DNA of 30,222 nucleotides from Dehalococcoidia bacterium (GTDB taxonomy: Bacteria; Chloroflexota; Dehalococcoidia; GIF9; AB-539-J10), in the NCBI GenBank assembly GCA_036448835.1, contig JAZFXR010000056.1, positions 1 through 30,222 on the forward strand. Reading direction: 5' to 3'. Below are positions 14,503-14,598 of this stretch, in pieces; within the stretch, counting starts at the first letter, position 1; each line of letters begins with the position of its first letter. The notes under the pieces were generated by a model. The model saw nothing but the letters and a program-made list of their open reading frames with translations. It did no database searches and was not told where the DNA came from. The position numbers and the translations under genes are program-made.

Positions 14503-14598
14503 TTATTTGTGCGTCCTTTGCCAGCGAGTTTTTTTAAGAAGTTTCTTATGTCTGTGTTTAGACATCTTCTTTTTTCTCCACTTAAGAACTGAACCCAT
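14503..14598 (-). CDS. small basic ribosomal protein bS22 (mS38/COX24/AURKAIP1-like, DUF1713), 31 aa; not in ORF track
   Basis: Hand translation [31 protein letters not shown]; the ATG overlaps the rplW stop (TAATG) and the TAA runs into the rplB Shine-Dalgarno (TAAGGAG); follows the bS22 pattern MGSV.K.R.K.MSK..H.KLL..TR.QR. Confidence 0.93.

Follow-up and report, generated by a model that had tools for sequence, protein, structure and literature searches.

A gene for ribosomal protein bS22 between rplW and rplB in the S10 operon of one Dehalococcoidia subclade

bS22 and its described counterparts

Structural work has presented the small ribosomal protein bS22 mainly as a feature of Actinomycetota and Bacteroidota. 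Its place in the solved ribosomes of the former is between h44 and h45 of the 16S rRNA, near the decoding centre, where it also touches H70 of the 23S rRNA; by inserting between h44 and h45 and contacting H70 it forms an extra intersubunit contact (PMC7797042, PMC12123416). Deletion of bS22 in Mycobacterium smegmatis is viable and raises susceptibility to kanamycin, and Lys-16 of the protein contacts h44 (bioRxiv 10.1101/2023.03.31.535098). The Bacteroidota protein is reported to occupy the same h44/h45/H70 site and is described as a structural counterpart of divergent sequence (PMC7797042, PMC12123416).

We analysed a stretch of 30,222 nt from a Dehalococcoidia bacterium (contig JAZFXR010000056.1 of assembly GCA_036448835.1; hereafter, the window), which carries a bS22 gene of 31 codons. 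The encoded protein contains 10 lysines, four arginines and three histidines, lacks aspartate and glutamate altogether, and begins with MGSV. The bS22 proteins of Actinomycetota, among them those of M. smegmatis and M. tuberculosis (for example 5o5j, 5o61, 8crx_X and 6dzi_j), belong to the same family, NF047430, and those in our alignment are 58–61% identical to the window protein. They have in common with it a length of 31–33 aa, an N-terminus of the form MGSV.K.R.K.M.K, the absence of acidic residues and a single helix. The two groups differ at a few positions: Chloroflexota proteins have W at position 26 (TRWQR) where those of Actinomycetota have V, I or H, and members of the window's genus combine W7 with R, Q or K at position 16 (R in the window), whereas actinobacterial bS22 has K16, as do most other Chloroflexota. 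They also differ in genomic context: at the Actinomycetota loci that we examined, bS22 is flanked by an HTH_17 gene and an NAD-epimerase gene, whereas in the window it is part of a ribosomal operon.

The Bacteroidota proteins (Flavobacterium johnsoniae Fjoh_1533 and Porphyromonas gingivalis AAQ66340.1) are about 30 aa long and very basic, like the window protein; in control runs on Bacteroides thetaiotaomicron (E ≤ 1 and E ≤ 0.01), no score exceeded the NF047430 cut-off. Another relative is the C-terminal domain of mitochondrial mS38 (AURKAIP1/Cox24), which falls in the same Pfam family, PF08213; the window protein scores above the gathering threshold of that model and aligns to the C-terminal helix. 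mS38 is nuclear-encoded and 128–200 aa long, with long N-terminal parts, whereas the window bS22 consists of the helix only.

The gene between rplW and rplB

The gene order of the S10 operon is among the most conserved in bacteria. On its minus strand, the window carries a str-S10-spc super-operon in the order rpsL, rpsG, fusA, rpsJ, rplC, rplD, rplW, rplB, rpsS, rplV, rpsC onward. The S10 operon around bS22 spans positions 12351–16458 and comprises, all on the minus strand, rpsJ (16150–16458), rplC (15514–16140), rplD (14884–15507), rplW (encoding uL23; 14598–14882), the bS22 gene (14503–14598), rplB (encoding uL2; 13653–14492), rpsS (13379–13669), rplV (13034–13372) and rpsC (12351–13031). 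In many bacteria tuf sits between fusA and rpsJ; here fusA (16455–18560, minus strand), upstream of rpsJ, overlaps it directly (16455–16458), so that there is no tuf between them. The window also contains a 384-aa ORF upstream of rpsL (19826–20980) and tRNA genes at 7–77 and 26523–26594, both on the minus strand.

The initial annotation, made from the sequence alone, had described an ORF of 31 codons that fills the rplW–rplB gap and is coupled to the genes on both sides, and we found the ORF and the signals for coupling as described. The ORF, with its TAA stop codon, occupies positions 14503–14598 of the minus strand and encodes the peptide exactly as quoted. Its ATG (14598–14596) has base 14598 in common with the stop codon of rplW (TAA, 14600–14598), which creates a TAATG junction with a 1-nt overlap. 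A Shine-Dalgarno-like word, GAGGG (14605–14609, minus strand), lies 6 nt upstream of the ATG, inside the 3′ end of rplW. At the other end, the stop codon of bS22 (TAA, 14505–14503) overlaps the AAGGAG Shine-Dalgarno of rplB (14499–14504, minus strand) in the sequence TAAGGAG. The TAATG and TAAGGAG junctions are kept in every member of the window's genus examined, and a GAGGG or GAAGG word is kept upstream of bS22 in all same-genus loci compared. In other genera with the S10 arrangement, bS22 mostly starts with TTG or GTG and has its own GGAG-type Shine-Dalgarno, with spacers of 15–60 nt.

For rplW we used the start of the public annotation, which gives a protein of 94 aa with a PF00276 (Ribosomal_L23) match on an identical public contig; the frame also stays open further upstream, as far as a TTG at 14906. 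The more likely start of rplB is a GTG at 14492 rather than the TTG at 14495 given in the ORF list, because the GGAG then lies at a spacing of 6 nt instead of 3 nt, because relatives have ATG, GTG or TTG at exactly the same position, and because the public annotation uses the same start (279 aa). With this start, 10 nt separate bS22 from rplB. The bS22 gene thus lies within the conserved order rpsJ-rplC-rplD-rplW-rplB-rpsS and on the same strand, and its junctions are too tightly packed to hold a promoter or terminator of its own. A search of the rplW–rplB gap revealed no promoter-like or terminator-like site, hits in the region being no commoner than in shuffled sequences, and no Rfam family matched in the region around bS22.

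The proposed identity as a bS22/mS38-type protein was borne out by the family models. NF047430, the NCBIfam equivalog for ‘30S ribosomal protein bS22’, matched all of positions 1–31 with 54.2 bits (cut-off 34; E = 1e-14), and the Pfam model PF08213 (COX24_C) matched with 33.3 bits (cut-off 23; E = 4.5e-8). When the whole assembly (873 kb in 147 contigs, 76.6% complete) was scanned with NF047430, it contained one bS22 copy, at 51.8 bits. In a phmmer search of the PDB, residues 1–29 aligned to the bS22 chains 9j1m_x (E = 1e-10), 8crx_X (8e-6), 9e16_x, 32nj_x (of the same sequence as 5o5j and 5o61; 1.5e-5) and 6dzi_j (9e-5); residues 3–28 aligned more weakly to mS38/AURKAIP1 chains (E = 0.007–0.4). 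An AlphaFold2 model built on a 34-sequence alignment predicts a single long helix (residues 4–23 and 25–30) with a mean pLDDT of 91.9. Among 34 bS22 sequences from at least four phyla, M1, K6 and R8 are invariant, and S3, V4, K10, K19, R25 and R28 are nearly so. Judged by these comparisons, the protein itself is an ordinary member of an already curated family.

The reading frame is also conserved at the DNA level. It is intact in 73 orthologous gaps, each from an independent assembly (61 distinct DNA sequences). The median pairwise dN/dS among the 61 distinct orthologous genes is 0.053, and the entropy summed over first, second and third codon positions is 10.7, 9.6 and 33.2, respectively, so that the third position varies about three times as much as either of the others. 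The HMM E-values, the conserved gaps, the third-position entropy and the dN/dS place the ORF far beyond chance. We conclude from these sequence data that the 31-codon ORF is a real protein-coding gene and a member of the bS22 family, under strong purifying selection.

The gene had been called ‘hidden’ and easily missed by annotation. This description did not survive: the identical protein is in NCBI nr, the gene is called in public assemblies, and an NCBI equivalog model names the family. In GCA_023139455.1 and GCA_023138955.1, for example, the bS22 gene is called, with PF08213, between the genes for L23 and L2, and a 90% cluster mate in NCBI nr bears the name ‘AURKAIP1/COX24 domain-containing protein [Dehalococcoidia bacterium]’. 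Prior annotation of the arrangement was what the initial annotation had said would remove its novelty, and most of that novelty is indeed gone. A literature search, which was not exhaustive, found no paper on bS22 in connection with Chloroflexota, rplW/rplB or the S10 operon in the relevant sense. The bS22 protein was already known; the novelty lies in where the gene sits and in the confinement of this position to one Dehalococcoidia subclade.

Distribution of bS22 and origin of the S10 position

Within the order to which the window belongs, bS22 and its position are uniform. The 40 relatives searched, 24 from the window's genus and 16 from elsewhere in the order (five families, 12 genera), have exactly one copy each, the order rplD-rplW-bS22-rplB-rpsS was found in 30/30 of the relatives' loci that were fetched, and no own-order locus or coordinate pair that we examined departed from rplW-bS22-rplB. 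All 41 own-order genomes searched have bS22, as do all 19 genomes of families f1–f3 in the class sample described below.

Beyond the order, we searched one sample of the phylum and one of the class, each restricted to genomes at least 80% complete, and counted bS22 matches at E ≤ 0.01. A match was present in 66 of 301 Chloroflexota genomes and in 100 of 301 Dehalococcoidia genomes, the latter count including one unpublished genome (G530), on which no other result given here depends; 201 of the 301 genomes of the class sample were without one. The closed genomes of 1.4–2.1 Mb in family f7, taken as Dehalococcoides/Dehalogenimonas-like on the strength of size and kinship, gave no bS22 match, nor did many other families of the sampled genomes. 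Position was scored from the coordinates of bS22 and rplB together with tblastn on fetched loci. The S10 position was found only in the window's order (families f1–f5) and in the class families f9 (G147), f78 (G343 and G370), f80 (G345) and f95 (G360); in all other bS22-positive families of the class, and in other classes, the gene lies outside the S10 operon. The arrangement is therefore restricted to one Dehalococcoidia subclade and is not a Chloroflexota-wide feature; the rest of the phylum has bS22 at other sites or does without it.

The expectation that rplW and rplB are normally adjacent was confirmed: in 51 of 59 Chloroflexota genomes without the insert, the two genes are separated by −13 to +47 nt, against 102–208 nt in S10-type genomes. 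Chloroflexota with bS22 elsewhere likewise have rplW and rplB mostly adjacent, unlike the window. The bS22 proteins of Chloroflexota encoded outside the S10 operon are orthologous to the window protein, with 55–90% identity, the highest value being that of locus L086 (family f107).

A DNA pattern scan over one genome per prokaryote species, with a degenerate pattern consisting of the bS22 N-terminus, 80–140 nt and a weak motif for the rplB N-terminus, returned at least 120 stretches. At least 35 of these are flanked by rplW and rplB and, among the matches listed, all are from Chloroflexota; their records are labelled Dehalococcoidia or Dehalococcoidales, a few being labelled only Chloroflexota/Chloroflexi or ‘Chloroflexia’. 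The other matches listed also hold a bS22 gene, but the rplB motif downstream is a chance match; they come from Actinomycetota (at least 75), Thermodesulfobacteriota, Myxococcota and Eisenbacteria.

Outside the S10 clade, bS22 has varied neighbours. A recurring site is between proB (glutamate 5-kinase, with AA_kinase and PUA domains) and proA (Aldedh), and in another clade its neighbours are an HGD-D-like gene and gap (GAPDH); these two contexts were seen at L058, L060–L063, L066, L067, L076, L077 and L081–L083 (families f109, f101, f86 and others). Further neighbourhoods are nitroreductase-bS22-holB and those of other classes, where the upstream gene may encode a HIT domain or the downstream one LemA. 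Clear bS22 genes (MGSVIKKRRKKMRKHK...) are also present in phyla that structural papers on bS22 do not mention, at L195, L224 and L256 (Desulfobacterales), L277 (a Myxococcota-labelled MAG), L235 (an Eisenbacteria MAG) and L173, and at L195 and L224 the gene adjoins a Band_7/SPFH gene. Two members of the class sample are unusual. At L087 (positions 1740–2078, minus strand; G427, family f111) the frame fits the family for 26 residues and continues to 112 aa, which points to a frameshift, a fusion or a mistake in the assembly. G490 (family f99) alone in the sample gave two bS22 matches, of 55.5 and 46.2 bits on contigs C156 and C218; with a contamination of about 2%, this could be a true duplicate or could reflect a mixed bin.

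A tree was built from rplD, rplW, rplB and rpsS (85 genomes, 673 columns). In the careful version, 24 of the 26 S10-type genomes fall in one clade, with support of 97/93* (starred) for a 23-row core of the window's order and f78, and of 82/83 when f80 is added; f9 and f95 fall into unresolved polytomies next to it. In its sister group (f99, f103, f107, f117 and f119), the context of bS22 is HGD-D/gap. A tree in which all 26 S10-type genomes were constrained to one clade was not rejected (p-AU 0.74) and was 33 lnL better than a quick free tree that had placed them in four groups, so the quick tree was not the best one. A single relocation of bS22 into the S10 operon is thus compatible with the data, although four proteins cannot resolve the backbone. 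In the own-order genomes, we found no bS22 remnant and no HGD-D neighbour upstream of gap, the site of the gene in the sister clade.

The rplW–rplB junction is occupied differently in two neighbouring families. In two f105 genomes, G399 and G474, the gap is 421–445 nt long and contains a conserved ORF whose product, of about 132 aa, is hydrophobic along a stretch near its C-terminus (L125, positions 1083–1478, plus strand, and L111, positions 2338–2790, minus strand, respectively), a different gene inserted at the same junction; it has no Pfam and no ESM-Atlas match, and bS22 was not found in these two genomes. In f17, the sister of f105, the gap is purine-rich and 80–95 nt long in some genomes and 2–9 nt long in others (the loci concerned are L112 in G273, L109 in G578, L292, L295, L299 and L300). 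The G273 gap reads MGSQVKRRVKKRSK, which corresponds to positions 1–14 of the bS22 HMM, with E = 0.058 (177 gap frames) or 0.0097 (45 frames), both in small databases, whereas a DNA profile search of the f17 gaps for a bS22 remnant gave nothing significant. As a weak lead, then, the f17 gap may hold a bS22 gene that decayed in place.

A fuller history can be sketched tentatively, and we give it somewhat less than an even chance. bS22 would have moved once into the S10 operon, at the base of a subclade comprising the window's order, f78 and f80 and possibly f9 and f95; a protein that had been accessory, dispensable and free to change its genomic place would thereby have become part of the core, constitutively co-expressed and never later lost in the order. 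The rplW/rplB junction would also have been evolutionarily active in the neighbouring f17 and f105 clade, with the possible decayed 5′ remnant of bS22 in the former and the unrelated 132-aa ORF in the latter.

Expression and role of the S10-encoded bS22

Two contigs from sediment metatranscriptome libraries bridge rplW-bS22-rplB, one in X8 (502 nt over positions 14383–14884, about 97% identity) and one in X3 (205 nt over positions 14386–14589, with one difference from the window). DNA may be carried over into such libraries, and a contig that spans several genes need not come from a single transcript; with these limits, the junction contigs are consistent with transcription. The bS22 gene is presumably transcribed on the same polycistronic mRNA as the rest of the S10 operon. 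It could be translated from its own Shine-Dalgarno, the GAGGG inside rplW, by termination and reinitiation at TAATG, or by both. Ribosomes finishing bS22 would terminate on the Shine-Dalgarno of rplB, which would couple rplB initiation to bS22 translation; it is this termination atop the rplB signal that would tie bS22 synthesis to that of the core proteins. We consider it very probable that the ORF is a single-copy gene for ribosomal protein bS22, a single extremely basic helix of about 31 residues, which has been relocated between rplW and rplB in the S10 operon and is made in step with the core proteins. On this basis the protein would be made in amounts stoichiometric with its neighbours, be incorporated into the 30S subunit, and act at h44/h45, as in the solved ribosomes. 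A point against this picture is residue 16, since the lysine with which the M. smegmatis protein contacts h44 is an arginine in the window and varies (R, Q or K) within the genus.

Two explanations do not involve a ribosomal protein, and we rejected both, on the grounds of conservation and family membership. At 31 codons the ORF is under the usual ORF-length thresholds, which would fit a chance open frame in an intergenic spacer or an artefact of assembly; yet its HMM E-value is 1e-14, the frame persists in the 73 independent assemblies, and the identical sequence occurs on other public contigs. This explanation, already refuted by those results, has next to no probability left. The ORF might instead act mainly as a regulatory uORF or leader peptide for rplB translation rather than encode a structural ribosomal protein. 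Because the ORF ends on the rplB Shine-Dalgarno, its translation is bound to affect rplB initiation. However, conservation extends to the peptide sequence itself and not just to its being translated (dN/dS 0.05), members of the family are seen in ribosome structures, and sister lineages have genes for proteins of up to 90% identity at sites remote from rplB. We regard a mainly regulatory role as very improbable.

A further alternative accepts the ORF as a genuine bS22 family gene but takes its product to be accessory, sub-stoichiometric or condition-dependent, with the S10 position of no particular significance and reflecting neutral relocation of a small mobile gene. The viability of M. smegmatis without bS22 and the lack of the gene in those 201 class-sample genomes fit this; dispensability there, together with absence from many sister Dehalococcoidia, means that bS22 is not necessarily a core component. 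The gene has at least five different neighbourhoods within Chloroflexota, and the TTG or GTG with which it begins in most S10-type genera could lower its output relative to its neighbours. Against this, bS22 is present in every genome searched of the window's own order and is under very strong purifying selection, and both of its junctions are compacted to overlaps in the window's genus, which argues for selected co-expression. An accessory product of a neutrally relocated gene is therefore unlikely in our view, though better placed than either of the explanations rejected above, and we favour a bS22 whose synthesis is tied to that of the core ribosomal proteins.

bS22 is patchy yet widespread, occurring in 66 of 301 Chloroflexota genomes and beyond the phylum in sequences that bear the labels Desulfobacterales, Myxococcota and Eisenbacteria. 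Its S10 position in Dehalococcoidia provides independent, context-based support for bS22 as a ribosomal protein outside the phyla for which structures exist. Given how conserved the gene order of the S10 operon is, a lineage-specific extra ribosomal-protein gene within it makes a tidy evolutionary and phylogenetic marker. The nature of bS22 is unchanged by these findings and, since the gene is already annotated, their practical value is that of a phylogenetic marker and of a reminder for studies of Chloroflexota ribosomes.
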